Below are positions 16,811 to 43,381 of a stretch of 64,000 nucleotides of DNA, in pieces. The DNA comes from Candidatus Poribacteria bacterium (GTDB lineage Bacteria > Poribacteria > WGA-4E > WGA-3G). The notes under the pieces are model-generated. The model ran no database searches. It was not told the origin of the DNA and was given only the letters and a program-made list of their open reading frames with translations. The stretch spans positions 128,001-192,000 of the forward strand of contig OZ251518.1 of NCBI GenBank assembly GCA_965242965.1, read 5' to 3'. Position numbers and translations under genes: made by a program. Numbering within the stretch: the first letter of the stretch is position 1; every line of letters begins with the position of its first letter.

Positions 16811-16853
16811 TGCGTTGGCCTAGCGAGGGACAGGCCCTCGCCCTACGGTAACT

Positions 16854-17309
16854 GAGGGTGTTTCATAAATCAATGTCTTCCCGGTAGGAGAGACCTCCTG
16901 GTCTCGATGGCTCTTGGGTGGGAGAGACCTCCCGCTCCCTGTAGCGCGGGGGCCTGTCCCCCGCGATCTCCATCGGCAAGCGGCGGCGTTTTAGGTCCTT
17001 TAGGACCTACATGTCTATAGAAAAACGTGCCGGCACGTTTTCAAGGTCCTTTAGGTCCTTAATAAAAAACCACGCGAACCTGGCAAAACCTATTAAGGAC
17101 CTAAAGGACCTTAGGGTTCTTTGCGGGCGCGCATGCTATAGACATTAAGGTCCTACGGACCTGAAGAGGACAATGGCAAGGGACAGGTTTTCCCACCGCC
17201 CCACGTGAAGGGGAGGCGTTTTTTTCATCGCAGCGCGCGGCCCTCGGATGCCACACGCGCATCCGAGCGGGTTTCCCCCGCGACGTTGGACGATTTATGA
17301 AACCCCCGC
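16854..17309. mobile_element. Non-autonomous TIR element (MITE-like) carrying REP modules, 9-bp TSD
   Basis: GAGGGTGTTTCATAAAT ... ATTTATGAAACCCCCGC flanked by ACGGTAACT at 16845-16853 and 17310-17318. Confidence 0.9.
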
Positions 17310-17353
17310 ACGGTAACTGATGGAAATTGAACAGAGGAGGTAAAGAGACTCAC

Positions 17354-18409
17354 ATGATTAAATCACTTTCACCGAGCCGATTGCACCGCTGGCTTTTCTA
17401 CGCAGAGGGGCTCGCAATCATCGTCTTTGTCGTGTTAGCCGCGATGTTCATCCGCAGAGGTGGTGCCGAACCGGAATCGCCGCCGGTTTCTCAAGTTGAA
17501 ACCTTCATTGAGAAAGCGGACGCGCGCTTTGAGCAGCAGGACATGGTGGGTGCAGTCCTCCTCTATTGGCAGGCACTTCATGCACTCGAAGGCGATGCGC
17601 GCCCCGAGGACGCGTCTATCCGCGTGCATGCGAATCTCCGCATCGCCGAGATTTACTCGCAAAGCAGTTGGCTGAAGGACGCAAAGGCACGCTTGGAATA
17701 CGCCGAACGCCTTGACTCCGAACATGAAGGCGTGCGTCTCTTACGCGGGAAACTCTACCGCGACGAAGGCCTGCCCGCCGAAGCCGCCGAGCAATTTTTG
17801 GCTGTCCTGAAAAAGAATCCCGACAACGCCGAGGCACACTACCTGCTCGGTGTTCTCTATCAGGCAAGCAAGCAGTTTAAAGAGGCTACCACGCACTACG
17901 CAAAGGCGATTGAAAGCGACTCGGGGTTGCAGGAAATCCCCTCCGAAAAAGCACCTATCGGCATTCTGGCGCGGCTGCAGCTGTCCCGAACCTATAGCCG
18001 AATGCTTCAAAACTATCAATTCCTTGACAGGGAGTTCACAAATGAAGATATGGTGGAGATTGCGCGGCTTGAATCGCAGGCTATTCTCCTCTTGGAAGAG
18101 GCTTATGCCAAGCATCCGGAACTCAATGAAATCAGCGATGACTTGATTCGGTTGCTCTTCGCCCGCGCCGCCGGCCTTGAACGCGAGGCGGAAACCCGTC
18201 CTTACGCCGACGCGCTTGAAGTCTACGAACGCATTGTGCAACTTGACCCGGGGGAAGTCCGCGCATGGGAACGGATGGGCGAAATTTACGCCGGCTTCCT
18301 TGACGATAAGGCAGCCGCGCTTGAAATGTATCGCAAAGTTTATGAACTTGAACCGCACCCCACGGTCTTGGCGAATATCAAATCGCTTGAGGAAGACCTG
18401 GGGGAATGA
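17354..18409 (+). CDS. Membrane-anchored tetratricopeptide repeat protein
   Basis: N-terminal TM helix; TPR units such as NAEAHYLLGVLY and VRAWERMGEIY. Confidence 0.85.
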   Translation: MIKSLSPSRLHRWLFYAEGLAIIVFVVLAAMFIRRGGAEPESPPVSQVETFIEKADARFEQQDMVGAVLLYWQALHALEGDARPEDASIRVHANLRIAEIYSQSSWLKDAKARLEYAERLDSEHEGVRLLRGKLYRDEGLPAEAAEQFLAVLKKNPDNAEAHYLLGVLYQASKQFKEATTHYAKAIESDSGLQEIPSEKAPIGILARLQLSRTYSRMLQNYQFLDREFTNEDMVEIARLESQAILLLEEAYAKHPELNEISDDLIRLLFARAAGLEREAETRPYADALEVYERIVQLDPGEVRAWERMGEIYAGFLDDKAAALEMYRKVYELEPHPTVLANIKSLEEDLGE

Positions 18410-18417
18410 ATTAGAAT

Positions 18418-18580
18418 GAGGGTGTTTCAGAACTCCGTTTCGGTAGTTATCCCGCCTTGGAGGGCTGGCGAATACCGGAAGGCATCGGGCCCCCGTCTGT
18501 AGTTCGGGAGCGCCCGCTCCCGAACGGGTCAGGATCAGGCGATCCTGACCTACAGGGGTAGCGATTTATGAAACACCCTC
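18418..18580. mobile_element. Short MITE-like TIR element, 9-bp TSD
   Basis: GAGGGTGTTTCAGAA ... TTATGAAACACCCTC flanked by AATTAGAAT at 18409-18417 and 18581-18589. Confidence 0.9.
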
Positions 18581-18599
18581 AATTAGAATAGGAGCCCTT

Positions 18600-20099
18600 A
18601 TGACACTACAATCCTATCCCGGCGCACTCTATTTTGGCGATAACCTCAACGTCATGCGAGAGATGCAAACGGGGAGTTATCATATCTGTTACCTCGATCC
18701 GCCTTACAACAGCGGGCGCAACTACAACATCTTCCTCGCCGGCTCCAAAGCGCAACGCAAAGTGTTTGACGACATCTGGCGGTGGGACGATGCGGCGCGC
18801 TACAATCAGGATGCTGTCCTTCACTACGATGGACTGCACCCCGAACTCGTTGAAACGATGGACAATTTGTCAGACTGTTTAAGCGGTTTTGACAACATTT
18901 TGAAGGGTAAAAGAGTCAGTGAGGCAGACTCAATGCGTGCCTACCTCGCCTTCATGGCACCGCGCTTGGCAGAGATTTGGCGGTTGCTAACGCCGGAGGG
19001 GAGCGTGTATTTGCACTGCGATCCGCACGCCAGCCACTACCTGAAATGCCTGATGGATGCGATTTTCGGCACTGCGAATTTCAGGAACGAGATTGTCTGG
19101 TGCTACACTGGCCCAGGTTCGCCGAAGATGCGTCAGTTCAACCGCAAGCACGATACCATCCTCTGGTATTCAAAGGGCAAAACTTGGACGTTCAATAGGG
19201 ACGAGGTCCGCCTGCCCCACAAAGGTGGCAAACCTCACACGGGTGGTTTCAAAGGCGGCGGCCGGCCGATTAACGACGAGTATTATGCACAGAAGGGAAA
19301 AATTCCTGAAACGTGGTGGTCAGATATCGCTGTTGCTGTCCGCTCGTCCAAGGAACGCCTCGGCTATCCGACGCAGAAACCGCTGAAGCTGCTGGAGCGC
19401 ATCATCAAAGCCTCTTCCAATCCGGGCGACATCGTCTTCGATCCGTTTTGTGGTTGTGGCACGGCGTTAGATGCGGCGCACGGCCTCAAACGGCGTTGGG
19501 TAGGCATCGATCTGACGGTGCTCGCTTTAGAACCGATGGAGCGTCGGCTTCGCGAACGCCATGGGCTTGTCCCGAAAGTGGACTATCACATCGAGGGATA
19601 TCCGACGACGCGTCAAGACGCGCTTCTCCTCGCCGAGCGAAACCCGAACGACTTTGCGAATTGGGCAGTTACCCGATTAGGACTCGCGCCAACGCCGAAT
19701 AGTAAAGATGGCGGGTTTGATGGCACGGGGAAGATTACGCTTTGGGAAAACAGGCACCTCGCCGAGGCGGCACAGACGAAACTTCCGATTATCGCCGAGG
19801 TGAAATCGGGGAGGAGTCTGAACCCGAATCAGGTGCGTGCCTTCCGCACGGCGATGCGAGACAACGATGCGGCACTCGGGATTTTCATCACCTTGCACGA
19901 AGTCACGCGTGGCATGCGCAACCTCGCGGAAGAGGAAGGCTTTCTTGAGCATAACGGGAAACGTTATCCGCGCTTGCAGTTTTGGCAAGTCACGGACAGT
20001 TATTTTGAGGATGGGCGGGTGCCAGTCAATTTACCGTGGCAAATCGATGAGCGTCCGAAGGCGGCGCGTCATTACGGCGGGGAGCAGACGTATTTTTGA
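18600..20099 (+). CDS. Beta-class N6/N4 DNA methyltransferase with C-terminal Mrr-like nuclease domain
   Basis: DPPY, YPTQKP, DPFCGCGT; C-terminal DGGFDG...AEVKSG. Confidence 0.9.
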   Translation: MTLQSYPGALYFGDNLNVMREMQTGSYHICYLDPPYNSGRNYNIFLAGSKAQRKVFDDIWRWDDAARYNQDAVLHYDGLHPELVETMDNLSDCLSGFDNILKGKRVSEADSMRAYLAFMAPRLAEIWRLLTPEGSVYLHCDPHASHYLKCLMDAIFGTANFRNEIVWCYTGPGSPKMRQFNRKHDTILWYSKGKTWTFNRDEVRLPHKGGKPHTGGFKGGGRPINDEYYAQKGKIPETWWSDIAVAVRSSKERLGYPTQKPLKLLERIIKASSNPGDIVFDPFCGCGTALDAAHGLKRRWVGIDLTVLALEPMERRLRERHGLVPKVDYHIEGYPTTRQDALLLAERNPNDFANWAVTRLGLAPTPNSKDGGFDGTGKITLWENRHLAEAAQTKLPIIAEVKSGRSLNPNQVRAFRTAMRDNDAALGIFITLHEVTRGMRNLAEEEGFLEHNGKRYPRLQFWQVTDSYFEDGRVPVNLPWQIDERPKAARHYGGEQTYF

Positions 20100-20119
20100 G
20101 CAGGATTTCCAAGATTAAC

Positions 20120-20535
20120 AGGTAGGAGGGACATCCTTGTCCCGATAGCCACATCAACAAAATGCATCGAGACCGGGAGGTCTCTCCTACGGGGACATGG
20201 CTTGCTCGGTATTTGCCCCTAATCGGGATAACTGAGGGTGTTTCATAAATCGCTCAACAAGGGGCCGTTTTTTTCACCGTAGCGCCGGGGCCTGTCCCCC
20301 GCGATTGTTGGGGTGTGCGAACGCTGGCAAGGGACAGGCCCTCGCCCTACGGTGACTGAGCCGTCCTCCTCTGTAGGTCAAGCTCGTCTGAAGCTCTGGC
20401 AGATTTGCCAAGCGGTCTTGACCTGTTCGGGAGCAGGTGCTCCCGAACTACGGTCTCTCGCATGCGCGATGCATCGAGACCAGGAGGTCTCTCCTACGGT
20501 GACATCGCTGGCTCGGTATTCGCCCCTAATCGGGA
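20120..20535. repeat. REP mosaic with orphan left TIR at 20234 and ~70-bp imperfect direct repeats
   Basis: ATGCATCGAGACC...CCCCTAATCGGGA at about 20162-20229 and 20469-20535. Confidence 0.85.
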
Positions 20536-20549
20536 AAATTCGGTATCAA

Positions 20550-20867
20550 TTATGCTTCGCACTTCGGTTGGTGTTTGCATCCTTCGCGTTGCCGCCGCAC
20601 CCATGCGACGCTGTCCTCCATATCCTCCCGATCTGCCCACATGCCAAAGAAAGGCAGAGACAGCAGGTCTTCCTTCTCCTCGTCGGACGTTTCGGTTTGC
20701 CCGATAGAGACAGGTGTCAATTCTTGGGGTTCATCGCGAATGATGTCGTCGTTTTCATCGCGAATCGGTGTCATATTGGCAAACACTTCGGTGCCTTCGG
20801 GGAGGGATAAAGGTTCGGCGAAGACAAGCGTGCCGTTGTGAACCTTACCGCGTTTGAACATAATCAT
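20550..20867 (-). CDS. Putative antitoxin (AF2212/AbrB-like N-terminus)
   Basis: RGKVHNGTLVFAEPLSLPEGTEV; C-terminal FFGMWADREDMEDSVAWVRRQRE typical of PIN-toxin antitoxins. Confidence 0.65.
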   Translation of the reverse strand: MIMFKRGKVHNGTLVFAEPLSLPEGTEVFANMTPIRDENDDIIRDEPQELTPVSIGQTETSDEEKEDLLSLPFFGMWADREDMEDSVAWVRRQREGCKHQPKCEA

Positions 20868-20884
20868 TTTTTCACCTCTTTTTT

Positions 20885-22045
20885 TTAGTCGGATCCTACT
20901 GCAGTATCACGAGGAGAGAGTCGTGCAACAATGTCCTCAAATCCTTGAAAAAGCAGTTGCACAGAGTAATTGGGAACTTCAGAATGCGTAGATTTTACCC
21001 GCTTCGCAGGAATCCGCGCAATAATATCCTCGTGCGGAGACTTCGCCTGTCTGGCAGAGAGTCGCGCCACAATCTCCTTAAATCCTTGAAAAAGCAGTTG
21101 CACAGAGTAATTGGGAACTTCAGAATGCGTAGATTTCGCCTGTTTGATAGAAATCCGCGCCACAATCTCCGCAACCCCATTGACTGCATCAAGGGGAACG
21201 CCTCCCAACTCAAGGAGCGCGGCGTTGCCTTGTGGCGGTGTATCAAAGCGGGCTGGATCGATGACAAAAAGCGGCACGTTCATACCGAGAGCCGTTTTAG
21301 CCGTGTCAAATGTCCCACTCATTTTACCGCGGGCATCCCGTTCCGGTCCAGATGCGATGACGACAACCGCTTTAGAGAGCGCGCAGACCAGTTTATTCCG
21401 AGTCATCGCGTTGCGCGCTAACCAGCGCGCGTCTGGGTCAAACTGTGATACCGCAAGCACATCTTGTTCCCAGTTAAATTCGCGGAATGCCTTTTTCTGT
21501 CGCAATTCCTTGATGCCGTAGGGAAGCACCAGCGTTGTTGTTCCCTCCGCCGCGAGCGCGCCCAAGTGTGCTGCTGAGTCAACGCCTTTTGCGTATCCGG
21601 AGACAACGTTCATTCCCTCGCCTGCGAGTCCAGCGGCGAGTTGCTCCGCGATGCGAACGCCTTTTTCTGACACATTCCGCGATCCCACGATTGCAACCCC
21701 ATCCGTTGTGAGGAGTTTTCGCTGGCCTTTGACGAACAGAATCGGCGAGGTTTCAAGAAGATGCGAAGAGAAATCGGGGTGCCCTGGAGAGATAATCTCG
21801 GTGCCGCGCCGTTTCAACTCCTCGTAATCCCTTTCTATCTTCTTCTGATCTTCCGCACGAATTTTGCCATTGAGGATTTCCGCTAATTCCGGGCATTGCG
21901 ATGAGAGCGCGTTTTGGCTGCGCGGTAGTTTTTCGGGATGGAGGCCTTGCTCATCAAGCATCCTAGCGATTTCGGCAAGGAGTTTGGTGCCGATGCCGCG
22001 CGTCTTAAAGAGCCGAAACCAGAAATAGTCTCTTTTGATGCTCAT
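20885..22045 (-). CDS. dprA: DprA/Smf family ssDNA-binding protein
   Basis: VAIVGSR, VVSGYAKGVDSAAH, RNKLVCALS and SGT motifs; C-terminal 47-aa duplication. Confidence 0.85.
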   Translation of the reverse strand: MSIKRDYFWFRLFKTRGIGTKLLAEIARMLDEQGLHPEKLPRSQNALSSQCPELAEILNGKIRAEDQKKIERDYEELKRRGTEIISPGHPDFSSHLLETSPILFVKGQRKLLTTDGVAIVGSRNVSEKGVRIAEQLAAGLAGEGMNVVSGYAKGVDSAAHLGALAAEGTTTLVLPYGIKELRQKKAFREFNWEQDVLAVSQFDPDARWLARNAMTRNKLVCALSKAVVVIASGPERDARGKMSGTFDTAKTALGMNVPLFVIDPARFDTPPQGNAALLELGGVPLDAVNGVAEIVARISIKQAKSTHSEVPNYSVQLLFQGFKEIVARLSARQAKSPHEDIIARIPAKRVKSTHSEVPNYSVQLLFQGFEDIVARLSPRDTAVGSD

Positions 22046-22758
22046 CTTTTTTTTCTCGTTCGCGTAAGAGTTAAGACAAGCACCCGGTAAACGCCGCCTT
22101 GCTTATGAAGAACATCGGTTAGTTCTGTCAAAGTTGCTCCAGAATCATAGAGGTCATCAATTAACAAGACAACTTTCGGCTGCAACTCATGGGATTCAAC
22201 AGCAAATGTTCCCTTGAGTTCCGCCGGTTTCTCTGAGTCTGGAACATTCTTTAGATCCCGGGTTGGTCTTACCTTAATCAGGTAATTTGTAGGGACAGGC
22301 AGATACAGAATCCTCCCTATTTCCTCCGCGATTTCGGAGACAGGTCGGAATTCCTTAGTCGGATTTGAACGTGGAACAGGAATAACTGCATCAAGGTAAT
22401 CGAGAACACGATAGCCCTTAACCTTAAACTCGTCTATGACAAATTTAGCCGCAATCTCCGCGAGCGGTCGAATCTTGCTTCGATCTGAACGATACTTCAC
22501 CTGATAAACCATTTCGCCAATTTCGGTTCGTTCGGTGTCATATCCTTCATCCGGCAAGAGTTGACTTGATACCGTATGAAAATCCAAAGCGTATCCAGCA
22601 CGCCATTTTCCAAGAATTTCCTGCGGATCGATGTTGATTACGCTTCGCGCGTCGGTAGGTTTTATGTGGACAATCACTTCGGTGCCTTCGGGCAGAGACA
22701 AAGGTTCGGTGAAGACAAGCGTGCCGTTGTGAACATTACCGCGTTTGATTAAAGTCAT
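22042..22758 (-). CDS. ComF-like phosphoribosyltransferase with N-terminal AF2212-like domain
   Basis: VLLIDDLYDSGATL PRPP loop; GYALDFHT; stop overlaps dprA start (ATGA). Confidence 0.8.
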   Translation of the reverse strand: MTLIKRGNVHNGTLVFTEPLSLPEGTEVIVHIKPTDARSVINIDPQEILGKWRAGYALDFHTVSSQLLPDEGYDTERTEIGEMVYQVKYRSDRSKIRPLAEIAAKFVIDEFKVKGYRVLDYLDAVIPVPRSNPTKEFRPVSEIAEEIGRILYLPVPTNYLIKVRPTRDLKNVPDSEKPAELKGTFAVESHELQPKVVLLIDDLYDSGATLTELTDVLHKQGGVYRVLVLTLTRTRKKR

Positions 22759-22912
22759 TTTTTTTCGCCTCTTTTCATTCACGTTACCGCTATGAAATGA
22801 CAAATCCCCGAAGGTAGTGCGGCATTATTAAAACTAGCTCCCCTACCTCTGCAGAGTCCTGACTAGTGATAGACTCTCAACTGTTCCCATAACTCCGCTG
22901 CTAATCCACCGG

Positions 22913-23419
22913 CTAGGACGTTGCTTGCAAGGAGGGACTCATTCTAAAATTGAAGATTGCGGCAAATCTACGGAAATTGGGGAGGCCCTCAGCCGCCTCA
23001 AAATACGCAAAACTCAAGTTTTGGAAATCCTCAGTAAAACAGATAAAAAGAAGCCGATTATGTTGCCAACTAGGCAATCGGACATCGCGGTTGTGGCTGT
23101 CCACAAGACCTTGCAGCACACGACGCATTACGGTAGTAGTGGATTCAAGGTCAACATCATTATGAAATTGGAGAAAGAAAACGCCCCATGGTTCACGGCT
23201 CCCGAAAAATGTCAGGGAATCTAAAGGTCGCAGTTGCCAACACCCAATGATTCGTTCTTGGGTATCAGGGTTAAGGTTAAGGTACTCGGCTGACCAATGA
23301 TAGGTAACGTCATTAAATTCCACCAAGTCGTCAGGAATAGGCCAACAAAGAGCCTCCCGTAAAAAGACTATTAAGGAATCAAAGTTCCGAATGTTTCGGA
23401 GAGCACTTGAAATTTCCAT
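22913..23419 (-). pseudogene. Probable truncated N-terminal fragment of a type IIG (Eco57I-like) R-M enzyme
   Basis: PWGVFFLQF and RRVLQGLV...LPSW..RLLFI resemble N-termini of large MTases that follow PLD-helicases (from memory); no MTase motifs follow. Confidence 0.5.
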
Positions 23420-23467
23420 TACGTTTGGTTCCGATGCGGTAAGCACGTTTTACGACATGCCTAAGGA

Positions 23468-26400
23468 TTAGGAAACCTCCAACCATGCGATGAGTTTCAA
23501 TTTTGTTCCAAGTGGAGCTTGGATACTTAGTAAATAGGTTCTTTCAATGTAGCGCTCAATTTGCCGCCGTGCTTTTTTAACAACTTGCTGTCCGCTTACG
23601 GCATAGCGGGACGCGTTATCGCCGCATCGAACTTCGGGCCAAATGCCTTCAAGATCTGTAACGACTTCATCCGTATCAGAGTTGTAGAAATACCAGCGGA
23701 TTTCCCCACTTTCTGGCATTTCATAGCAACAGAAAACTCCCCTCGCCCTAGCACGATTCAGGGATATCTGTTCACCGTTCCGGTCGACAAGTAGCGGAGG
23801 TTCCTCAGAGGCACGTTTGCCTGAGAAAATACGTAGAGGTAAATCCTCCAATCGTCTCCACAGGCTCGGCTTCGCTTCAGCAATGCGTTGCCGTTCAAGA
23901 TTCATGAGTTCTTCAACGCTTTCCGTTCCCTCATATCGCTCATTGAAGAGCTGGAGAGTTTGATCTGCATCATCAGGGGAAACAAACTGTCCTTCAATAC
24001 CGAGGGTTCGATTGATGCGAAGAATTTTTCCATCAACGCGTCTTCGGATCTTAATGAGATCTTCAAGTTCCTGAGGTGGAAGGAAGTTCCAAACATGAAC
24101 TTCTGGATCCGTGCGATTGAGTTGAACTTCAATATCGGGGTTAAGCCGTCTATCAAGCCTACCAATCCGTTGCATAAGTCGGACAGGGTTCCAATGCAAA
24201 TCGTAATTAATAACCCGTGAGGCATCCTGCAGGTTCAGCCCTTCGGCAAGGACATCGGTTGTAATCAGGATGCGAATCGGCCTAGCAGGTGGTGCGCTCT
24301 CTCCGTTGTAGTAAGGGGAAAAGCGTTTGACGACATCTTCACGGTTGACTTTCCGCTGACTATCAATTTGCTCAACGTGATGGAACCCGAAGTTTCGTAA
24401 CTGGCTATAGAGGTAGCGGGCGGTATCCGAAAATTCGGTGAAAACGATGAACTTCTCATCCGGATCTTCTTTCAACAGACCTAGGAGTTGGCGCAACTTA
24501 TCGTCCTTCGCTGCATCCGGTTCCTGCGCGAACTGGTCCGCGTAGAATCGACAATAAATTCCGCTGAGGAGTCGAGTCAAAAACTCCATATCCTTTACAA
24601 CATCATCCAAGAAATTATCCAGATTATGTTCGCTAGAATCGAAGTCTTTTAGAGTTCCGACAGAAACGATGTCGTTTTCCTCTTCGTCCGGATTTCGTTC
24701 AATTTGCCTTTGCAAATTTTCCGGACCTACCACAGGTTGGCTACCTTCATCACCGTCTTCACGTAGACGTTCTGATACGTGGTCTTGCACAACCTGCCAC
24801 CAGCGGCGGTTGGTAACGGCCCATTCGTCAAAACGTTCAGGCGCGTATCTTCTGAGCGATGCTGCCATCTTGACAAGCAACTTTTCGACACTTACCTCAA
24901 AGGATTTCCACGAACTTTCTAACCGTTTGAGCAAGAGCGTCCGGATGAGCCCGATGACCTGGGTTTGGCGGTGTTCCATCTGTCTTTCGGGGTTTCTATG
25001 ATACTTAGCCGTATTATAAACGGCCAAGGTAAGAAAAGGATCTTGCCTGTTGAAAGCGATTTGGAGTTCCTGATAAAGGTTAGCATACACCTCACGAAGC
25101 GAATATTCTACAATAGGGTAGATAGTGCGAGCCGGAAAGAGAATTTCTCGCCCTGCCCGTTCTTCTGCATCCTTAATATATTTGCGACTGCGCTGAACGA
25201 GGACATGCTTAAGAACCGGGTCTTGGCGAATCAGGTCATCCTCGCCGAATGAATGGAAATGTTCTTCAACATCAGCCTCGCTGCCAATCTGCCTTTCAAG
25301 CTCACGAAAATGGCGACGGAAATCGTGAATTCCGATTTGAGCGAAGTGCTTCCCCTTCTGCTGTGCAAAATAGTTAATCAAATGGGAGATATCCTCAATG
25401 GAATTATTGATCGGTGTTGCCGTGAGCAGATAGAGTTTCTTCGATTTAGCGAGAGCCATCAAAGCCCTACCGCGGTTTGACCCAGGGTTGCGAAAGTGGT
25501 GAGCTTCATCAATGATGATAACATCCTTGTGTTCCCGCAAGTACTCAAACTCTTGCTCATTAATTCCACCCTCTCGGCCAAGATCTGTATGGCGTTTGAT
25601 GTCGTAGAGTTCACGGTAGCGACGGCCGTATTTGGCCCTAAGATACTGAGGAACAAGGGGTTCCCATACGCTCTCAGCGACGGATTTAGGAGCAATGAGT
25701 AGGACACGCTTGTCGTCCCTCAGCGAACGTTCAAGCAACATCAAGCCGATATAGGTTTTTCCACTACCGACTCCATCACAAATCAAAGACCCATTCCATT
25801 TTTCGGCTATCTGTAGTGCTCGGTGGTAGCCATCCTTTTGGTACTGCGAAAGCATACGGTAGATAACAGATTCGTTTTCTTCCCATTCGTCCGCTGGTTT
25901 TTCACGTCCAGCGAAATAGGAATGAAGTGCTTTTGCGTAAACGGTAAATGGACGGTATCTTCTGAGGTGTGGTTCAATGACTCTGAGAATTTCAGGTTGA
26001 ACATCCGATGCTTCATCCCACCAATTTTCGTACGAGTCCTGAAGGTGCGCAATTTGCGTTGAATCCTGAAGGAATAAATTGGACTCAACATTCTTGGCGA
26101 GTCCCGCTGGAGTGAAGTTTGAACTGCCGTGAATAGCAAAGGGTCCTAAACTCTGATTGTGCGAACGCATCAGAGTAAAATTGGCATGAAACCCATTATA
26201 GACCCGGATCTGTATGCTGCCGCTGCTAATAGCTTTCCTCACAGAAGCGAGATGCTCAAGAGTCAGAAAATCGTTCTTCTCCTTTTCGGACTCTAGGTTA
26301 TCGCGGGTAACCTGCTGCAAAGCCTCTATCAGCTGCTCTTTTGTACGCCCCGTAGTTTCATTGCCTATGAGGATACGAACAGCACCGAGGTGTTGCCACG

Positions 26401-26539: not shown

Positions 26540-26956
26540 ATTAACCCCATAGTTTGGACAATTTGCATCAAAGGATTCGCGTTGAGCTATCCAAGTGACA
26601 GCGGCGTATATTGCGAATTTCGTCTCTTTCAAGGATATGAAAAAACTCATCACGTAATGAGTCCCTAAAGGCTGACATGAGACGAATGAACTCCTACGGA
26701 GTTGCAGCACTGAATCGCAAGTTTCCAGCCCACAAGTTAACTGCCTCCGCTTCTGAGTTCCGGGTTGTGACGCGATGGAAAACGGCGCGTCATCTCTTAA
26801 CGAACGCGATAGCCCGAGTGCCGCCCTTCCGTGGCGACCGTTCACGAACCAGCGCGCAATTGATAACGTATTAGATAGGATACCATAAAAACGCAAAATT
26901 GGCAACCCAACGACAAACGTTTGCCGAAATTTCGTTAATACGCCATCAACATCTTT

Positions 26957-26985
26957 ATTCTACCAAAAATTGCAATGTGTGTCAA
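26957..26985 (-). promoter_or_regulatory. sigma70-type promoter upstream of the helicase island
   Basis: TTGACA-17-TAGAAT on the minus strand. Confidence 0.55.
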
Positions 26986-27056
26986 CCTTTTTCTCGCAGA
27001 AATCAGAGCGATTCAATTCTCCCCTTCTGTCGTTTGGCCCCGGTCGAGCCCGAACA

Positions 27057-27083
27057 GGTAAAGATCAGGCGATCTTTACCTAC
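27057..27083 (-). repeat. Single family-C REP hairpin downstream of the tRNAs
   Basis: GTAG-GTAAAGATC-GCCT-GATCTTTACC on the minus strand. Confidence 0.75.
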
Positions 27084-35425: not shown

Positions 35426-36536
35426 AAAGCCTCACAAAATCTTGCAGTGCTAGCGGACGTGGATTAAACTGTGCTGTCCATTGCGCCGCCGCTTCTTCCG
35501 CCAATGTGGGGATATCGCTTCGCGCAATGCCGAAATCTCGGAGGCAGTGTGGTAATCCGGTGGCATCCTTGAGTGCCACAATCTGCTCAGCGAGCTCTCT
35601 GTCAGGCGACAACTCCCGATATAAATCTGCAACGACGGTGCTATTGAACCTGATGACGTGCGGTAACATGAGTGCTACTGCAACGCCGTGCGTGATGTCG
35701 TATTGCGCAGTCAACGGATTAGCGCAGGCGTGCGCTGCACCGAGCATCGAATATTCGATGGCCGTTCCTGCGAGGTAAGCACCGAATAGCATGTTACCAT
35801 AAACCGAGCATTCTGCATCGAGTTGCACGCCGCCCTCTGCAACCGCCGCTTCAAAATTTGCCGTTAACAACCGCCACGCCTGATGCGCGAACAGACTTGA
35901 CATCAAGTTTCGGCGCGTGGAGACGAAACTCTCCACGGCGTGCGCGATAGCATCTATCCCTGTGGCTGCTGCTACCGGTTTCGGTACGGTGGTGATGAGG
36001 CCCGGGTCTAAAATTACGGTTGCGAATTTCGCTTTTCTGTCACCACACGCCATTTTGATATGCGTTTCCACTTGTGAAATCAAGGCAAAGGACTGCGCTT
36101 CGCTGCCGGTGCCGGCGGTTGTCGGAATTCCGATGGAAGGAAGCATTGCGCGCGTGGCGCGATTTGAGCCCCAATAGTCCTCCATTTTTCCGCCGTTTGT
36201 GAGCAAGAAGTTGACACCCTTAGCGCAATCCATCGCGCTACCGCCGCCGAGCCCGATGATGATGTCAATCGGCGCGTTCGCCTTCGCGAAAGCGTGGGCG
36301 GCTTCAACGTGCCGCGTCGTCGGATTCGGCGCAACATCGGCAAAAGTGTGACAGACGATTCCTTCGCGTTGTAACGCCGCAATCCCCTGCGCGACGATGC
36401 CGGCATCTTGCACACCCGGGTCCGTCACGATAAGCACCCGATATCCATTGAGTGCCTTGGCTGCCTCACCGAGTCTCTCTACGGCGTTCTTTCCAAAGAT
36501 GACGCGCTGCGTCAGTTCGGATTCAAAGTTTTGCAT
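35409..36536 (-). CDS. Iron-containing alcohol dehydrogenase
   Basis: GLGGGSAMDCAKG, PTTAGTGSE, DAIAHAVE, AHACA, HGVAVA. Confidence 0.9.
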   Translation of the reverse strand: MQNFESELTQRVIFGKNAVERLGEAAKALNGYRVLIVTDPGVQDAGIVAQGIAALQREGIVCHTFADVAPNPTTRHVEAAHAFAKANAPIDIIIGLGGGSAMDCAKGVNFLLTNGGKMEDYWGSNRATRAMLPSIGIPTTAGTGSEAQSFALISQVETHIKMACGDRKAKFATVILDPGLITTVPKPVAAATGIDAIAHAVESFVSTRRNLMSSLFAHQAWRLLTANFEAAVAEGGVQLDAECSVYGNMLFGAYLAGTAIEYSMLGAAHACANPLTAQYDITHGVAVALMLPHVIRFNSTVVADLYRELSPDRELAEQIVALKDATGLPHCLRDFGIARSDIPTLAEEAAAQWTAQFNPRPLALQDFVRLYEATY

Positions 36537-36580
36537 GAATGAAAGTTTGGACGATTCCTAATCAAAAAGGTGTTAATGAC

Positions 36581-36609
36581 ATTAAACCTTATTTCGCGAC
36601 TTTTGTCAA
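36581..36609 (-). promoter_or_regulatory. sigma70-type promoter of the ADH-led operon
   Basis: TTGACA-17-TTTAAT on the minus strand. Confidence 0.55.
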
Positions 36610-36633
36610 GCAAAGAGGATGAAGATTACCGTA

Positions 36634-36811
36634 ACGCGGGGGACAGGCCCCCGCGAACAATGGTTACCGTAGCGCGGGGGCCTGTCCCCCGCGATCTCTC
36701 CGCGCGCGATAACCCAGGCGAGGGACAGGCTCAAGACCGGAACATCGAGACCAGGAGGTCTCTCCTACCCCGCGAACGTTGGCATGGCGAGGAACAGGCC
36801 CTCGCCCTACG
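36634..36811. repeat. REP mosaic
   Basis: Family A and B hairpins in both orientations. Confidence 0.85.
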
Positions 36812-36831
36812 GATTTCCAACGGTTTCAGGA

Positions 36832-39800
36832 CTACTCAGCCTTCGCGCGTTTGATGACTACCAGCGTTAAATCATCATACTGCTCCGTTTCGCCGACAAA
36901 TTCGTGGACATCCTCAACGATGCGGTTAATTATCTCCTCTGCGGTGTAGTCTGCCGGCATGTCGGAGACTAACTCCATTAACCGCTCCGTGCCATACATC
37001 TCGTCCTCGGCATCAAGTGCCTCGATGATGCCATCGGTATGGAAGATGAAAGCATCCCCTTCTTCCAACGTGAAGGAAACGGCATCGTAACGTGCTCTAC
37101 GCATGCTGCCGAGCGGCAGATCGCTGCTCTCTATTTCTGTCGTCTCTGCGTCCCGTTTCAGGAGAGGATAAGGCTGTCCGCCGTTGGCGTAGTCGATTTT
37201 TCCACTATCAGGATCCAGCACGACGAGGTTCAACGCGATGAAACTCGGTCCGTAGAGTCGCGGTGCCAACCCGATGTTCAGTTCATGGAGAATGACATCT
37301 GCCTCGGAACGGAAGCGCGTGACTTCATAAAGCATGCCGTTCGTCAGCACTGCACTCATTGCGCCGCGCAACCCCTTGCCCGCGGCATCGGCGACAGCGA
37401 TGACGGTTTGTCCGTCAGCAACGGTGAGGTAATCGAAGAAGTCTCCGCCTACCTGTTTTGCGGGGACAGACATCCCGGCGACATCAAACCCTGGAATATC
37501 GGGTGCTTCCTCTGGCAGCAATGCCATTTGTATGGTTTGCGCTTCATCCAACTCGGCGCGAATACGCGCAATCTCCGCTTCTTCCTGTTTGCGCACCTCA
37601 GCTTGCAGCTGCATCGTGCGCCGCCGAGTCATGTAAAGGCGCACCAGCAAGGTGATGACTGCGGTGATGAAGATAAGCGTCGGCAGATAACTCCGCCATT
37701 TTGTCCAAAACGGCTGCGAGATGGTAACGTTTAACACCGCCGGGCGCTGCGTATACGGCGTGCCATCGCGCAGTGCTTTGATAAGAAACGTGTAAGTGCC
37801 GGATTTCAATCCCTCATAATGGACTTGCAATGCCCCTGCCGTGCTTTGCAACTGCTGCGTAATCCCACCGTAGGATGCCTGTTGATGCGTTTGGACAGAA
37901 GATGCCGCTGTATCTGTCAACTGCGCCGCGGTCTCCGCCGAAATGTCTGTCCACGCGTTCGTGTCTAAGCCGACTAACTTAAATTGATAGCCGAGTGCCT
38001 CTCGCAGCGGGCTGATGCCTTGGAAATCGATGGTGATAGCATCAGCGCGCGATGGAAGCGTCACACCCGAAATTTCATCTACATCACCGTAACCGGAAGG
38101 TTTGAGGTGACTCGCAACCCCCGGTCTTCTAGAAAGCGAGTAGGTTCTGTCCGCCTCAATAGACGCTAAACGACAGAACGGAAGTCCGCCGCGCTCCGGC
38201 GTATAGCGTGTAGCACCGCCTTCCGTCGCGAACCACATCTCCTTCTCTTTGGATTCGTAAACATGAGAGACGTTGTTATGCCGGAGTCCGTCCTTAGTCG
38301 TGATGACATAAAAGGTTTCGCCGTCATAGCGCACGACCCCACCGCCCCACGTGGCGAACCAGATATTACCCCAACTATCCTCCTTGACATCACGCACGTC
38401 GTCGACAAGAAACCCATCTTTCGCTGTCGCATAAGTCATGACGTTTTTGCCATCGTATTTGACGGCACCGTGCTCCGTTGCCAACCACAAATCGCCAGAC
38501 TTTGATGCCAGTCGCGCGCGGACAGGGGCAACGTCAATGTCACTGTTGGTGATGGGCACGGTTTCGTCATCGCTGATGCGGTAAGTCGTCAACTGTTTTT
38601 CAAAGAGGAAGGTTACTTCTTGGGATACCTCCAACGGGTTCATCCCTTCGCTGGCGTTCCGTGTTTGCCAGACTGCAACTGGGAGCGAACGCGCAGCATG
38701 CTCTGTTTCCACCCATCGCTCTTCATCGCTTTCTGTCCACATCCACCGCGTCAATTTCCCGGTAGCACTGCTGAAAAACCATTTGATTTCAAAATCGGAT
38801 GCGAAGGATTTGCCCAGCCTTTCAGGACTGCTGGTATGCACCAATGCGGCGGCGTTCAACGGCAAGATTTCCGGTTGTAGGTTGCGTCCGCCTGTTGCTG
38901 AATAACGCTTCACCTGTCCGTTGTCAAAGTGGCACCAAAGTCGGCCCAGCTTATCCGTGTGGAGAGACGTAATCGCCGAGGGTGCATGGCGCATCTCGCG
39001 AGTCTGCTGAAACAGAACCTTGACGAACCCTGCTTCCGGCGAGAGCCACTGCAACCCGGTTGCATCCGGTTTGAAGAGCCATCCGCCTAAAGCAAGCCAC
39101 GGTTTCTCGCCTTCGGACAGGAGCACCTCAACGTTACGCGTATTGAGTCTTTCGCCGCCGGGCCCGATTTCAACGGCGACAGAGAGAGAAACCTGGTCAA
39201 ATTTGCCGTTGGCATATCGGAAGAAGGTGTATCGCGTTGCATCGCGGCCGGGTGCCGGGCGGTTGATGAACCAGACATGCTCATCAACTTCAAAGATTTT
39301 GATAATCTCCGTGCGTCTTCTAAAGTTATTGAAACTTTCTGCGCGTCTTCTTCCGATTGCGTTCGCCGCTCTCCTCCGTCGCGGTTCACCCGATGTCTCT
39401 ATCCGCAATCGATGCGTTGATAGCGCGGTTATTCCCTCTTCAGCGAGTGCTTCGTCGGCTGTGGCGGCTGCGTCGTAAAGCGCGACACCACCGGGAATGC
39501 TAAACCAGAGTCGTCCGCGGCTATCCTCATACACGTGTCGGATGCTTTCCCCACCGATGCCGGCGCGGGTTGAATAATTCCTCATCGCCGGTCTGGGGTT
39601 GTAGGCAGTCACACCGTTATCGTGTCCAAACCAGAGCGTGCCGTCTATCGCCTCGAAAATAGAGAGAATCCGGTCGCTGCCGAGTCCATCATCGGCATAA
39701 TAGTCGGTTTGGACAAGGTCTGCATCGTATTGATGCGCGCCACGCTGGCCGGCAAACCAAAGATTCCCGGTTCTGTCTTCCATTGCGAGGAAGCCGCGCA

Positions 39801-40938
39801 GATATTCAGGACGTGCGCTGATATCCCCGTTAGTGGCGGTTCTAAGGGCCCGGAGGGTTGTTCCGTCCCACTGTCGGAGGCTGCCGCGGGCACTAAACCA
39901 GATTCTCCCTTTTGTGTCACTCTGAAGTGAAACCCGCCTGTCGGGAGGTGGTGGTGCTCCCGGCGTTTGAGGGGCTGCCTCGCCGCCGCGCTGCGCCCTA
40001 GGTGGTGGAGGAGCTTCCCCACGTCCCTCGCCTCTCCCGGGTCGCGTTCTCCTTGGATGGATGCGTTCAAAGGTTTCGCCTTGCATCCGGATGAGGAAAT
40101 TTTCTCCGCCAAACCAGAGCGTATCGGATGCATCCTGTGCGATGGCGTGAATTGCTGTGCCGTGTTGCAGTTCTGGTGCACTAACGCTGTCAAACGCCCG
40201 CGTCTCTCCAGTTTCACGATGAACGTTCAGCACTACTGCGTTCTCCCCATCGCTTCCACCGAGCCAGAGATATCCATCTCCGCTCTCAAATATCACGTTT
40301 ATCGTGAGGGGATTTTGCCATGAGGGCCGGTCTGGCCGCACTTTGGCTGCAACAGGGACGCTTCGCAGTTGCGGTGCCTGTTGCACGCCGGCGGTGGTAT
40401 ACTGCACCAGTTTTATGCCATCGCCGCCGGCTACCCAGATATCGCCGTGCCGGTCGGCGAGGAGCGCGTTCCCTGTAGTAATAGGTTCAAACAACGTGCC
40501 GTCAAACCGGGTCACGCGTCCTACAGCCTCAGTAGGGACGCGAGACAAGAACCAGATATGTCCCCATTTATCTTCGACGATATGTTGCGTATAACCGAGC
40601 AGCGCGCCTGGTGCAACGGCAGCTTCACGGGGAGGTGTCTGGCCGTCCGAACTCCAGTAGAAATAGAAGCCGCTCTCAGCCTGTTCATCTGTTGTGGTTC
40701 CCTCGCGTATTCCGACGTAGGCAACGAAGGTGTTTCCATCAAATCGGGTTACGCCGCCGCGGTTAGAACCGAACCAGAGTATGCCGCGGCTATCCTGAAA
40801 AATAACGGGGACAACGGGCGCGACCAGGCCGTCTGCAACCGTGTAGGTTTGCATCTGCTCTGCGTGGGTGGCAGTCCCCGTTGTGAGCAGGACGAGACAA
40901 ATTACCCAAATGGGTGCATGAATTGAAAATGTTTTCAT
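36832..40938 (-). CDS. Sensor PP2C phosphatase: beta-propeller (Reg_prop) repeats, YYY-like domain, TM helix, SpoIIE domain
   Basis: EDSRGRLWF/DGL repeats; VGGDFFD, VADAAGKG, TDGIIEA, DDLTLV. Confidence 0.9.
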   Translation of the reverse strand: MKTFSIHAPIWVICLVLLTTGTATHAEQMQTYTVADGLVAPVVPVIFQDSRGILWFGSNRGGVTRFDGNTFVAYVGIREGTTTDEQAESGFYFYWSSDGQTPPREAAVAPGALLGYTQHIVEDKWGHIWFLSRVPTEAVGRVTRFDGTLFEPITTGNALLADRHGDIWVAGGDGIKLVQYTTAGVQQAPQLRSVPVAAKVRPDRPSWQNPLTINVIFESGDGYLWLGGSDGENAVVLNVHRETGETRAFDSVSAPELQHGTAIHAIAQDASDTLWFGGENFLIRMQGETFERIHPRRTRPGRGEGRGEAPPPPRAQRGGEAAPQTPGAPPPPDRRVSLQSDTKGRIWFSARGSLRQWDGTTLRALRTATNGDISARPEYLRGFLAMEDRTGNLWFAGQRGAHQYDADLVQTDYYADDGLGSDRILSIFEAIDGTLWFGHDNGVTAYNPRPAMRNYSTRAGIGGESIRHVYEDSRGRLWFSIPGGVALYDAAATADEALAEEGITALSTHRLRIETSGEPRRRRAANAIGRRRAESFNNFRRRTEIIKIFEVDEHVWFINRPAPGRDATRYTFFRYANGKFDQVSLSVAVEIGPGGERLNTRNVEVLLSEGEKPWLALGGWLFKPDATGLQWLSPEAGFVKVLFQQTREMRHAPSAITSLHTDKLGRLWCHFDNGQVKRYSATGGRNLQPEILPLNAAALVHTSSPERLGKSFASDFEIKWFFSSATGKLTRWMWTESDEERWVETEHAARSLPVAVWQTRNASEGMNPLEVSQEVTFLFEKQLTTYRISDDETVPITNSDIDVAPVRARLASKSGDLWLATEHGAVKYDGKNVMTYATAKDGFLVDDVRDVKEDSWGNIWFATWGGGVVRYDGETFYVITTKDGLRHNNVSHVYESKEKEMWFATEGGATRYTPERGGLPFCRLASIEADRTYSLSRRPGVASHLKPSGYGDVDEISGVTLPSRADAITIDFQGISPLREALGYQFKLVGLDTNAWTDISAETAAQLTDTAASSVQTHQQASYGGITQQLQSTAGALQVHYEGLKSGTYTFLIKALRDGTPYTQRPAVLNVTISQPFWTKWRSYLPTLIFITAVITLLVRLYMTRRRTMQLQAEVRKQEEAEIARIRAELDEAQTIQMALLPEEAPDIPGFDVAGMSVPAKQVGGDFFDYLTVADGQTVIAVADAAGKGLRGAMSAVLTNGMLYEVTRFRSEADVILHELNIGLAPRLYGPSFIALNLVVLDPDSGKIDYANGGQPYPLLKRDAETTEIESSDLPLGSMRRARYDAVSFTLEEGDAFIFHTDGIIEALDAEDEMYGTERLMELVSDMPADYTAEEIINRIVEDVHEFVGETEQYDDLTLVVIKRAKAE

Positions 40939-41003
40939 AAGTTCCTCGCTCCCGAAAACCGTTCCCGGTGCGTCCGGCACGGATTCGTTTTCGTGTTTAT
41001 CCT

Positions 41004-42173
41004 TTACAGATTTGAAATGCGCGATATTGCCTCTGAAATTACCGCGTCCGGATAGGTGAGGGAGATGCGGAAGTATCCCTCACTCCATTGTCCATAGCCG
41101 AGTCCGGGCGTGACGACAACTCCCGCTTCTTCGAGAAGTGCAGTAGCGAATGCCCGACTTGAGCCGTTAAATCGCGGCGGGACCGGTGCCCACACATACA
41201 TCGTCGCCTTTGGCGTTTCAATGTTCCATCCGTTTTGCCGCAGGCCATCGACGACGATATCGCGGCGTTTCTGATAGACAGCGTTCAGTGCTGGCGTGAT
41301 TTCATCCGCGAGTGAGAGTGCCTTCGCGCCCGCGAATTGAAGCGCGCGGAGGCAGCCGTTATCAATATTGTCTTTCACCAATGTCACCGCTTCAACCGCG
41401 GTTCGGTTGCCAGCGACGAATCCCAATCTCCACCCTGTCATATTAAACGCTTTGCTCAGCGAGAAGAATTCCACGGCGACTTCGTCGGCACCGTCAACTT
41501 GCAAGATGCTCGGTGAGCGGTAGCCATCGTAGGTATTTTCGCTATAGGCGTTGTCGTGCGCGATGAGGATATCGTTCTGCCTGCCGAATTCCACGGCGCG
41601 GGCGAAAAAGTCCAAATCGGCGGTAGCTGTCGTCGGGTTGTTTGGATAGTTAATCCACAGCACCTTCGCGAGGCGTTTTACCTCATCGGGGATTGCGTCA
41701 AAGTCAACGTAGAAATCGTTTTCGCGGCGTAGCGGCGCGTAGTAAGTCGTCGCACTGGCGAAGACGTGGCCGATGTTGTAAGTCGGGTAGCCTGGGCTCG
41801 CCGCGATGCCGATATCGCCGGGGTTGAGCAGCCCCAATGCCATTTTGACGATGGCATCTTTGCTGCCGAGCGTTGTGACTACTTGTTCTTCTGCCAGCAA
41901 AACGCCGAAACGGTGTTGATAGAAATCGCGCACCGCCTGCGGAAAATCCGCGACCGGATTGTCGCATCCGTAGCGGTGTCTGTCTGCATCGGTGACATCT
42001 TGCACCGCGCTGCAGAGTGCTGCCACAACCGGGTCGGGTGTAGGCAAATCCGGGTCCCCGATACCGAGGCTAATGACATCAACACCGCGCGCTTTCGCCG
42101 CCGCCATTTTCTGCCGCAAATCTACGAAAAGATAGGGTGGAAGTTTTTGTAAACGTTCTGCAAATGTTATCAA
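41004..42173 (-). CDS. dapL: LL-diaminopimelate aminotransferase (class I/II PLP enzyme)
   Basis: LPPYLF, LGIGDPD, NYPNNPT, HDNAYSE, SLSKAFNMTGWRLG. Confidence 0.75.
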   Translation of the reverse strand: MITFAERLQKLPPYLFVDLRQKMAAAKARGVDVISLGIGDPDLPTPDPVVAALCSAVQDVTDADRHRYGCDNPVADFPQAVRDFYQHRFGVLLAEEQVVTTLGSKDAIVKMALGLLNPGDIGIAASPGYPTYNIGHVFASATTYYAPLRRENDFYVDFDAIPDEVKRLAKVLWINYPNNPTTATADLDFFARAVEFGRQNDILIAHDNAYSENTYDGYRSPSILQVDGADEVAVEFFSLSKAFNMTGWRLGFVAGNRTAVEAVTLVKDNIDNGCLRALQFAGAKALSLADEITPALNAVYQKRRDIVVDGLRQNGWNIETPKATMYVWAPVPPRFNGSSRAFATALLEEAGVVVTPGLGYGQWSEGYFRISLTYPDAVISEAISRISNL

Positions 42174-42251
42174 ATTGTTTGTCCTCGTTTTTTGCGCGCT
42201 TCCAAAGCGTGCCCCGCGTAGGGACAGTTTGAAACCGTGCTTACTTTAACT

Positions 42252-42639
42252 GAGGGTGTTTCATAAATGGCTCAACGTCGCGGGGGACAGGCCCCCGCGC
42301 TACGGTGAAAAAAACGCCGCCCCTTCACGTAGGGCGAGGGCCTGTCCCTCGCCATCGTTTTGGTGTCAGACTGCATCACTCCTGTAGGTCAAGATCGCCT
42401 GATCCTGACCCGTTCGGGAGCGGGTGCTCCCGAACTACAGAGGTGGGCCCGATGCGCCTCCCCATCGCTTTTCTATCGGTATTCGCCCTCCCCGCAAGGG
42501 AGGAAACGGATTTATGAAACTTGACGATGACGATCGCGGGGGACAGGCCCCCGCGCTACGGGCACATCGAGACCGGGAGGTGGAAATCGAGCCCCGAGGT
42601 CTCTCCTACCGGGAAATCATCGATTTATGAAACACCCTC
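42252..42639. mobile_element. MITE-like TIR element with REP cargo, 9-bp TSD
   Basis: Perfect 17-bp TIRs GAGGGTGTTTCATAAAT; ACTTTAACT at 42243-42251 and 42640-42648. Confidence 0.92.
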
Positions 42640-43381
42640 ACTTTAACTGAAGAATTGCCTGCTGCGTCTCGTTCAACCCCTCCATCACGTTTGAACTGAA
42701 ATGCAACCCCTGACCGCCCCAATCCGGCATGTAGCCGATGCTGTAGCAATAATAAAGCGTTCGGCGCGGTTTGCCAGAGACGTTGGTGACAGAACCGTGC
42801 GTGAGTGCTTCCGTGAAGATGATGGCATCGCCAGCTTCCGCAGGAATCGGCGTAAGCACCGGGTTCTCGTCCGGATGATTTCCCCACGGTTTGGGAAAAT
42901 TGCTCTTATGCGCGCCGGGAATGGCGGCGAAGCATCCATCCTCTACATCACAATCCAGCATTGGGAAAACCGCTTTCGTCAGCGTGGATACCATCTGTCC
43001 GTTCTTGCAGTGATATTGGCACTTCGGAATAATCGGCGTGCCGTGCATGTGCAAGCCGGTATAGCCGCCGCCCCACCGATAAATCGTGTAGGTATGATTG
43101 AGGCGATACGGCCCACCTGTCACGCCTTCAACTACCTCAAGCACCTCCGGAATGTCAATCAGCGCGTTGAAAACGCTGTCCGCCTCTAAGATGTTGGAGA
43201 TGTAGAGCTCCTTCTCCGTGCGTTGCGTGCCGAGGCACAACGGCGGCGGATAGTCGTCCGGCGGCATCTCCTCAAACGTGTCAAGGACGCGATTGCACGC
43301 ATCAATCACGTCAGGCGGTATGATACGTTTTAACACAATATAGCCTTGCAAGTCAAACAAATATTTTTGTTCGTCTGTCAT
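42638..43381 (-). CDS. Phytanoyl-CoA dioxygenase (PhyH) family protein
   Basis: FDLQGYIVL, IPGAHK, AGDAIIFTEALTHGS, RRTL; start at MTDEQKY. Confidence 0.85.
   Translation of the reverse strand: MTDEQKYLFDLQGYIVLKRIIPPDVIDACNRVLDTFEEMPPDDYPPPLCLGTQRTEKELYISNILEADSVFNALIDIPEVLEVVEGVTGGPYRLNHTYTIYRWGGGYTGLHMHGTPIIPKCQYHCKNGQMVSTLTKAVFPMLDCDVEDGCFAAIPGAHKSNFPKPWGNHPDENPVLTPIPAEAGDAIIFTEALTHGSVTNVSGKPRRTLYYCYSIGYMPDWGGQGLHFSSNVMEGLNETQQAILQLK

Follow-up and report, generated by a model that had tools for sequence, protein, structure and literature searches.

The 64,000-nt window analysed here (G000:C1:128001-192000; positions 128,001 to 192,000 of contig OZ251518.1, assembly GCA_965242965.1) belongs to the genome of a Candidatus Poribacteria bacterium (G000; 5.70 Mb, 2 contigs, 94.7% complete) and contains three elements, referred to as elements 1 to 3, in which terminal inverted repeats (TIRs) and target site duplications (TSDs) enclose GTAG-tagged hairpins of the repetitive extragenic palindrome (REP) type. 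[quoted passage not shown] TIRs identical to those of an insertion sequence (IS), TSDs of 8-9 bp in the same target, empty sites, relics fused to REP arrays, and shared interiors were all directly seen.

Three TIR-bounded elements in the window

All three elements are intergenic and lie amid ordinary genes (dsbD-like, tetratricopeptide repeat (TPR), methylase, aminotransferase and PhyH). An earlier reading made from the letters of the window (the sequence-only reading) had placed them at the coordinates below, with lengths of 456, 163 and 388 bp and a perfect 9-bp TSD each, and all of these values stand. Module labels (A to E) and end labels (E1 to E14) were coined in the present analysis.

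16845..16853, left TSD of element 1, ACGGTAACT; a free REP-A hairpin (~16823-16847) ends within it
16854..17309, element 1, 456 bp: between two TIRs, REP-C, then REP-A, a D palindrome cassette and degenerate A/a hairpins
17310..17318, right TSD of element 1
18409..18417, left TSD of element 2, AATTAGAAT
18418..18580, element 2, 163 bp: between two TIRs, an E hairpin (shell-specific) and an inverted REP-B doublet (18499-18553)
18581..18589, right TSD of element 2
42243..42251, left TSD of element 3, ACTTTAACT
42252..42639, element 3, 388 bp: initial ~270 bp resembling the main subfamily (A- A+ B+ B- E-like), followed by an extra arm (A- C-like)
42510..42520, minus strand, truncated TIR relic inside element 3 (exact-match scan)
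42640..42648, right TSD of element 3

The termini said to be common to the three elements are indeed present in each, with two mismatches at the right end of element 1 and one at the left end of element 2. Three distinct module orders were confirmed: C+ A+ D D D and, in degenerate form, A/a modules in element 1, a singleton arrangement between the dsbD-like and TPR genes; E B+ B- in element 2, which belongs to a three-copy subfamily; and A- A+ B+ B- A- and, in degenerate form, C modules in element 3. The TIR relic within element 3, the only one of its kind in an exact-match scan of the 291 shells described below, marks the point where a main-subfamily body was extended.

Genome-wide census and target site

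A scan of G000 for TIR ends, defined by at most 2 mismatches to the 15-nt core of the 17-bp TIR, returned 989 ends against ~11 expected from Markov simulation. Adjacent left and right ends no more than 1.2 kb apart gave 291 paired shells, for which TSDs and module orders were tabulated. Perfect TSDs measured 8 bp in 62 pairs, 9 bp in 26, 10 bp in 4 and other lengths in 6, compared with 0.35, 0.09 and 0 perfect TSDs of 8, 9 and 10 bp, respectively, in a control with shuffled pairing; 60 further pairs had a TSD with one mismatch, and 133 of the 291 had none even when one mismatch was allowed. The 9-bp TSD of elements 1 to 3 is not the family norm, 8 bp being commoner. A fixed 9-bp TSD for the whole family was tried and rejected, as it pairs only 44 of 493 left ends, which a variable length resolves. 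The sequence-only reading had also offered a 7-bp TSD with TGAG ends as equivalent; this is excluded, because 25 of the 92 perfect TSDs of 8-10 bp are not of the A...T form, and the A and T thus form part of the palindromic target ANTTAANT, the element itself starting at GAG. A TIR end adjoins 66 of the 410 perfect ANTTAANT sites in G000.

Some 400 ends in G000 are solo, and comparison with the sister species G002 showed several of them to be insertions that are exact at one junction and bear a deletion at the opposite side. Loss of TSDs through recombination or adjacent deletion has been published (PMC11708052). Longer imperfect duplications of 15-17 bp were noted at G000:C1:3012250-3012750 and L011:609-900, in one case with a TIR short by 8 bp, suggesting aberrant one-ended integration. 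TIR ends also stand back to back around one 8-bp target at L017:1500-1509 (genome G010) and at four G000 sites, as tandem same-site insertions.

A cognate insertion sequence in related Poribacteria

Pattern searching of 41 genomes identified in one relative, G022, seven TIR pairs of 1,107 bp, identical copies that share the 17-bp TIR of the shells, contain a single open reading frame (ORF) of 332 aa and are flanked by ANTTAANT-type TSDs of 8-9 bp, perfect in six copies and with one mismatch in the seventh. Relatives of this IS were matched in 64 of 112 family genomes; at 20 further IS loci, a 1.1-kb TIR pair was present in 17, both ends were exact in 15 and the TSD was perfect in 9, and no REP modules were found inside any of them. 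The putative parent of the shells is this 1.1-kb DDE insertion sequence, intact in related sponge-associated Poribacteria and represented in G000 by relics only. The full-length IS with the same ends that the sequence-only reading anticipated thus exists in relatives and not in G000, and its identical ends, its 8-9-bp ANTTAANT TSDs and the empty sites described below uphold the idea of a DDE-mobilised shell.

No intact IS copy was found in G000 (best protein match, E = 1.1e-5), and, with an assembly that is 94.7% complete, its loss is likely and not proven. Searches of G000 with PF01609 and PF05598 returned nothing, and no transposase was seen among the ORFs inside solo ends in the 25 clusters listed. 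There are six G000 matches of ~130-140 bp to the left end of the IS, including the transposase start, and eight ends of the IS-left-end type, seven of which run into REP arrays.

The best hidden Markov model (HMM) for the transposase was that of IS982 (NCBIfam NF033520), at 55.2 bits and below the cut-off of 130, and the protein passes Pfam PF13612 (39.3 vs cut-off 27). The IS1182/IS5-type parentage proposed earlier did not survive, the corresponding scores being 21.7 bits (cut-off 270) and 16.7 bits (cut-off 140). Residues D121, D213, E269 and K286 were invariant across 11 homologues, including Chloroflexota at 40% identity; the DDE triad was assigned from this conservation and not from structure, and a PDB sequence search with the transposase gave 0 matches. 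Published IS982 members are 845-1,282 bp long, usually have one ORF, generate direct repeats of 2-10 bp and end in AC(N6)T(N5)TT, and their DDE signature has no K/R at +6/7 and K/R near +17 (PMC7335449). The parent IS resembles them in size, single ORF, direct repeats of 8-9 bp and DDE spacing (L and S at +6/+7, K286 at ~+17), and differs in its ends, which start GAGGG, and in its sub-cut-off HMM score. Because the end motif is not matched and the score falls below the cut-off, we call it IS982-like and not a member of IS982. It apparently represents an unclassified IS982-related group with GAG ends in Poribacteria and Chloroflexota. Distant group members at loci L217, L218 and L242 (40-44% identity, Poribacteria and Chloroflexota) have related ends containing GTGTGCATAA; judged by such homologues, the group reaches beyond the Poribacteria family.

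With TIRs, TSDs, empty sites, no transposase and ends shared with an IS, the shells are best described as MITEs, presumably mobilised in trans given the common TIR, TSD length and target. The homogeneous size and interior typical of MITEs is a trait that they lack, 204 of the 291 being singletons.

Interiors drawn from a shared REP pool

The cargo of the shells has the properties of GTAG REPs: a GTAG followed by a hairpin, high copy number, and arrangement in doublets and clusters. There are 6,123 perfect GTAG-hairpins in G000, and a census with seven module patterns yielded 10,349 module hits in 1,976 clusters, of which 1,279 were TIR-free, 394 carried one TIR and 266 carried one pair; 4,357 of the hits fell in TIR-bearing clusters and 1,702 inside paired shells. 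The GTAG-REP interior varying from copy to copy, as described in the sequence-only reading, was confirmed and is common to free REP clusters: the interiors are mosaics drawn from a REP pool shared with TIR-free clusters.

Grouping at 82% global identity divided the 291 shells into one subfamily of 65 copies, seven small subfamilies and the 204 singletons. The 65 copies have the same layout and different TSDs, indicating that shell and cargo moved as a unit. The closest pair of shells is 95.6% identical, and since no pair exceeds this value the transposition burst appears to be old. A TSD was kept at similar rates in the two groups, by 49 of 81 shells in families of at least three and by 109 of the 210 others. 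Among these 158 TSD-bearing shells, 45 matched one donor and 113 needed 2-6 donor segments; internal donor segments came from TIR-bearing clusters in 56 cases and from free clusters in 40, with a median length of 173 bp. Within the main layout (51 copies), multi-base hairpin variants assort freely, with all four gametes in 8 of 10 character pairs; the 32 fully typed copies comprise 20 haplotypes, and free clusters show the same variants. End types E1, E2, E5 and E13 were shell-specific, and at E6, E8, E9 and E11 the TIR is joined to sequence that free clusters commonly contain (E6, 34 occurrences with a TIR vs 1,221 without; E11, 15 vs 720).

Empty sites and orthologous loci

Comparison with G002, a sister species of the same genus whose TPR orthologue is 91% identical and whose genome has almost no TIRs, drew on 1.12 Mb sampled of its 5.2 Mb. 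The empty sites that had been proposed as a check on the elements were found there for elements 2 and 3, clean and with a single target copy left, and were not found for element 1, because the intergenic DNA at that locus in G002 is unrelated. At least five of the 21 G002 sites listed are clean empty sites (elements 2 and 3 and at least three other shells). Both flanks could be matched in G002 for 78 TIR-bearing and 170 TIR-free clusters, and REP modules were present at the orthologous site in 11 of the former and 53 of the latter; thus, shells mostly brought their own REPs and did not land on existing ones.

Five TIR loci were examined in a further genome, G001, and three of them were orthologous to G000 clusters with different cargo. 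One of these sites shares the exact right junction, a second is offset by 1 bp, and at the third a TIR-less G000 cluster begins exactly at the G001 TIR junction and an internal block is common to both. Candidates for alleles with the same site and different cargo, which the sequence-only reading had envisaged, were thus found at three sites between G000 and G001, and none was seen within the species. Five of the 15 TIR matches in G001 lay on one 34-kb contig (G001:C102); other G001 ends may be unassembled, or this contig may come from a closer relative.

Gene-carrying units

Long end pairs (1.2-8 kb) numbered 175, and two of them had a perfect TSD where 0.19 were expected. Three more had a TSD with one mismatch, which brings the total to five against 2.3 expected and is within chance. 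A search for matching TSDs among solo ends at distances of up to 50 kb yielded the second unit described here, one 38-kb pair near chance and nothing else. The first unit extends past the end of the window:

60865..60872, left 8-bp TSD of the ISP unit, AATAAATT
60873..64000, ISP unit, 3,920 bp, continuing to window-equivalent 64792 (G000:C1:188873-192792)
61357..64000, minus strand, Type ISP-like single-chain restriction-modification gene, 1,023 aa, with its start past the window end

It consists of a TIR, tandem A-C-B-B blocks, the Type ISP restriction-modification gene, a REP cluster and a TIR, with degenerate inner TIRs on one side only (61056-61070 and 61251-61265), and its site is precisely empty in G001. 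The second, an ankyrin/dockerin unit of 2.9 kb (G000:C1:54311-57212; L020:212-3113), has its gene between REP clusters with one TIR per side, and the site is empty in G001 and G002 with one target copy. Both units therefore have outer TIRs, a TSD and an empty site, and neither has two complete flanking MITE copies. Identification of the ankyrin protein as a Dot/Icm Ank was considered and rejected, the matches being far below the cut-off and reflecting the repeat only.

No close donor copy of the unit genes was found in G000 (81.8% and at most 86% identity), where a native ankyrin paralogue lies at 1.71 Mb, and the captures are not datable from gene identity because native orthologues are only 72.7% identical. 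Six other ISP paralogues (82-86% identity) lie between REP clusters, and at the four ISP paralogues with one outer TIR no matching TSD was found. ISP genes also occupy other, non-orthologous REP-flanked sites in G002, and since that genome is nearly TIR-free, these genes move without shells. On G000:C1, 64 REP-flanked segments have whole-length paralogues elsewhere (restriction-modification genes and large unannotated proteins), with no TIR enrichment among them (19 of 64 vs 905 of 1,595). REP-flanked genes may relocate without shells.

Proposed mechanism and alternatives

In the sequence of events that we favour, the transposase gene of an IS copy would first have been lost and a REP cluster from next to it would have taken the place of the middle of the IS, giving rise to founder MITEs such as the 265-bp form. 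The transposase, needing only the ends, would then have copied these founders to several hundred sites and would later have been lost from G000. Gene conversion or ectopic recombination, together with microhomology deletions, would since have remodelled the interiors in situ by exchange, gain and loss of modules. The TSD would often survive this, and one or both ends would sometimes be deleted, leaving solo ends and some of the 'free' clusters. At least twice, a REP-flanked gene would have been brought between TIR ends. The REP-associated tyrosine transposase (RAYT) would stand apart as a system of its own, probably supplying the REP pool without being needed for shell loading, recombination with ~10,000 REP modules presumably being the simpler cause.

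Several observations weigh against this account. The part given to the IS transposase is read from shared ends and a shared target. Donor breakpoints were not enriched in REP modules, falling in them in 75 of 209 cases (36%, where 46% would be expected, on a rough measure from BLAST edges), which does not support recombination at the hairpins themselves; the hairpin variants, for their part, could recur by hairpin-templated repair. The different-cargo sites could be independent insertions, as end types differ and one junction is 1 bp off, and with 66 of 410 perfect target sites adjoining ends, reinsertion at the same site is possible. At the third such site, the common block has 26 similar copies in G000, among which the orthologous one ranks fourth. 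Same-species alleles with different cargo were not seen; a metagenome scan with the TPR protein recovered distant relatives only (at most 68%), and such alleles were accordingly not obtained.

A more ambitious reading, which we regard as unlikely, is that of a nested system in which REP clusters would serve as exchangeable docking sites within a DDE shell, with REPs and REP-flanked genes entering by REP-to-REP exchange, perhaps RAYT-initiated, and then being dispersed by the IS982-related transposase.

Capture at transposition, in which two TIR ends flanking a REP cluster or gene act like a composite element and the interior is made beforehand and stable since, appears improbable as the general explanation. 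The ~400 solo ends would provide the raw material, several end types (E6, E11) join the TIR straight to free-cluster sequence, and the two gene units, with their perfect TSDs (2 of 175 pairs), precise empty sites and genes without a close G000 donor, are what this route would produce. However, the free assortment of hairpin variants within a fixed layout, the solo ends that are no more than truncated insertions, and an orthologous cluster with its TIR lost and its modules changed all point to change after insertion, and ISP genes occur at non-orthologous REP-flanked sites in the nearly TIR-free G002. Capture probably accounts for some elements and not for most.

The sequence-only reading had proposed a two-tier system, of which the DDE shell, the REP cargo and a RAYT flanked by one cargo family were recovered, whereas loading by an HUH enzyme was not; recombination would suffice. 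Such a two-enzyme system, in which a RAYT inserts REP modules or REPINs into REPs within shells and a DDE transposase moves the shell, seems to us similarly improbable. G000 has one intact RAYT (G000:C1:3147502-3147963; L002:1423-1884; NF047646, 120.7 bits vs cut-off 80), situated in a dense field of B-family REPs with 19 flanking matches, and B is cargo of elements 2 and 3; B modules reach a density of 306 per Mb in G000, as against 7 per Mb in the sample of G002, and TIR-bearing clusters contain 55% of them. The RAYT of G002 is flanked by C/c modules, and RAYTs above the cut-off occur in 77 of 112 family genomes. The RAYTs flanked by each REP family that the sequence-only reading had advised looking for were thus seen for B and C/c; neither G000 nor the loci examined in 30 relatives (the best-scoring of several hundred matches) yielded one flanked by A or D, although A is the commonest cargo. 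The swapped segments are, moreover, long (median 173 bp), take in spacers and twice whole genes, and neither a direct tie between RAYT and shell loading nor a RAYT-specific junction signature was identified. Elsewhere in G000, an IS200/IS605-like element at G000:C1:3123891-3127127 has a TnpA match interrupted by 2 stops, next to a long and apparently TnpB-like ORF.

Assembly chimerism, to which we give almost no credence, is largely refuted: the genome is very repeat-rich and no contig piece listed spans a whole element (at the left junction of element 3, contigs enter by 15-23 letters only against a bridging rule of 31, and X12 covers no junction), but unique interiors have perfect TSDs, sites are empty in other species, contigs X4 and X10 of two other studies bridge element 3 at its right junction, shells are >4% apart, and the cognate IS shares the target.

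Other TIR ends and features of the window

Two further paired shells and five solo ends lie in the window:

49575..49826, paired shell, 252 bp, TSD gone
50867..51160, paired shell, 294 bp, main E1-E2 subfamily, TSD gone
1347..1361, minus strand, solo TIR end adjoining a REP cluster
7815..7829, minus strand, solo TIR end adjoining a REP cluster
8653..8667, plus strand, solo TIR end adjoining a REP cluster
20234..20248, plus strand, solo TIR end adjoining a REP cluster
56975..56989, plus strand, solo TIR end adjoining a REP cluster

A tRNA-Sec gene (51173-51262) directly adjoins the shell at 50867-51160; an Rfam scan of the window detected 3 tRNAs and nothing else. Three N6/N4 methyltransferase genes lie at 18600-20099, 43518-45377 and 45155-46663, two of them with Mrr-like nuclease matches, and the latter two are neighbours ~80% identical to each other.

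Relation to known systems and significance

The nearest published counterparts each share part of the organisation seen here. MITECca01 of Cardinium (~240 bp) derives from the IS982-family ISCca4, with the parents intact in the same genome (PMC9769881); the shells are likewise non-coding, TIR-bounded, high-copy and intergenic, with IS982-type ends and relic intermediates, and differ in having a lost parent and, in 204 of 291 cases, a unique REP mosaic as interior. The QMITE2 element of Coxiella burnetii, a MITE with direct repeats of 7-9 bp, includes a GTAG REP (PMC5896051), and its truncated copies, like those of the shells, resemble free REPs; as far as that account goes, QMITE2 has one conserved body in large and small forms, in contrast to the several REP families, variable module order and number, and occasional genes of the shells. 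Streptococcal BOX elements combine TIRs and TSDs with a modular interior in which the number of boxB units varies between strains at one locus (PMC3049150), and BrickBuilt elements of Porphyromonas have inverted-repeat ends and a modular interior (PMC4596501). The modules of both, as presented in these sources, are the element's own tandem units, whereas those of the shells are part of a separate and far larger population of GTAG REPs that has a RAYT of its own. GTAG REPs, bacterial interspersed mosaic elements (BIMEs) and REPINs are known as tagged hairpins, inverted doublets and clusters, with RAYTs flanked by their own REP family (PMC3733652; reviews, PMC3184786 and PMC10969869); the passages of PMC3733652 used here describe no REP clusters bounded by DDE TIRs and TSDs, and here about one-third of clusters carry such an end. 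For the gene units, precedents are found in composites of TIMEs (miniature elements with inverted repeats that derive from Tn3), which are transposase-less, TSD-bounded and gene-carrying (PMC4133298), and in transposon-like restriction-modification units with inverted repeats and a short target duplication (PMC2853133). Unlike the TIME composites described there, which have Tn3 ends, the gene units have IS982-like ends, a gene between REP clusters and a single outer TIR pair.

The suggestion of an undescribed system was accordingly overstated, as QMITE2, BOX, BrickBuilt and the TIME composites cover parts of it. No publication on this shell family, or on MITEs with multi-family REP mosaics, was found in searches that covered few subscription journals and not ISfinder, and the 15 papers listed by one of them nowhere mention Poribacteria. 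Each part has precedent, and the combination and scale were not found in the literature searched; the shells are an unusual variant that involves no new chemistry.

How REPs spread is still debated, and their spread is usually credited to RAYTs. By one count, 3,695 of the 10,349 REP modules in G000 (37%), and 55% of the RAYT-cognate B family, fall in clusters with a DDE end; the tally by module hits given above is 4,357. As a TIR-free cluster may also be a former shell, hitch-hiking in MITEs may be a real second route of REP spread, and because perfect TSDs mark insertion points, the turnover of REPs in place becomes measurable. The shells twice hold defence or eukaryote-like genes, which makes them a plausible route for relocating such genes in sponge symbionts. 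The docking-site reading, if true, would make DDE transposition a second route by which REPs disseminate, and would mobilise defence and symbiosis genes of these symbionts in an integron-like manner.

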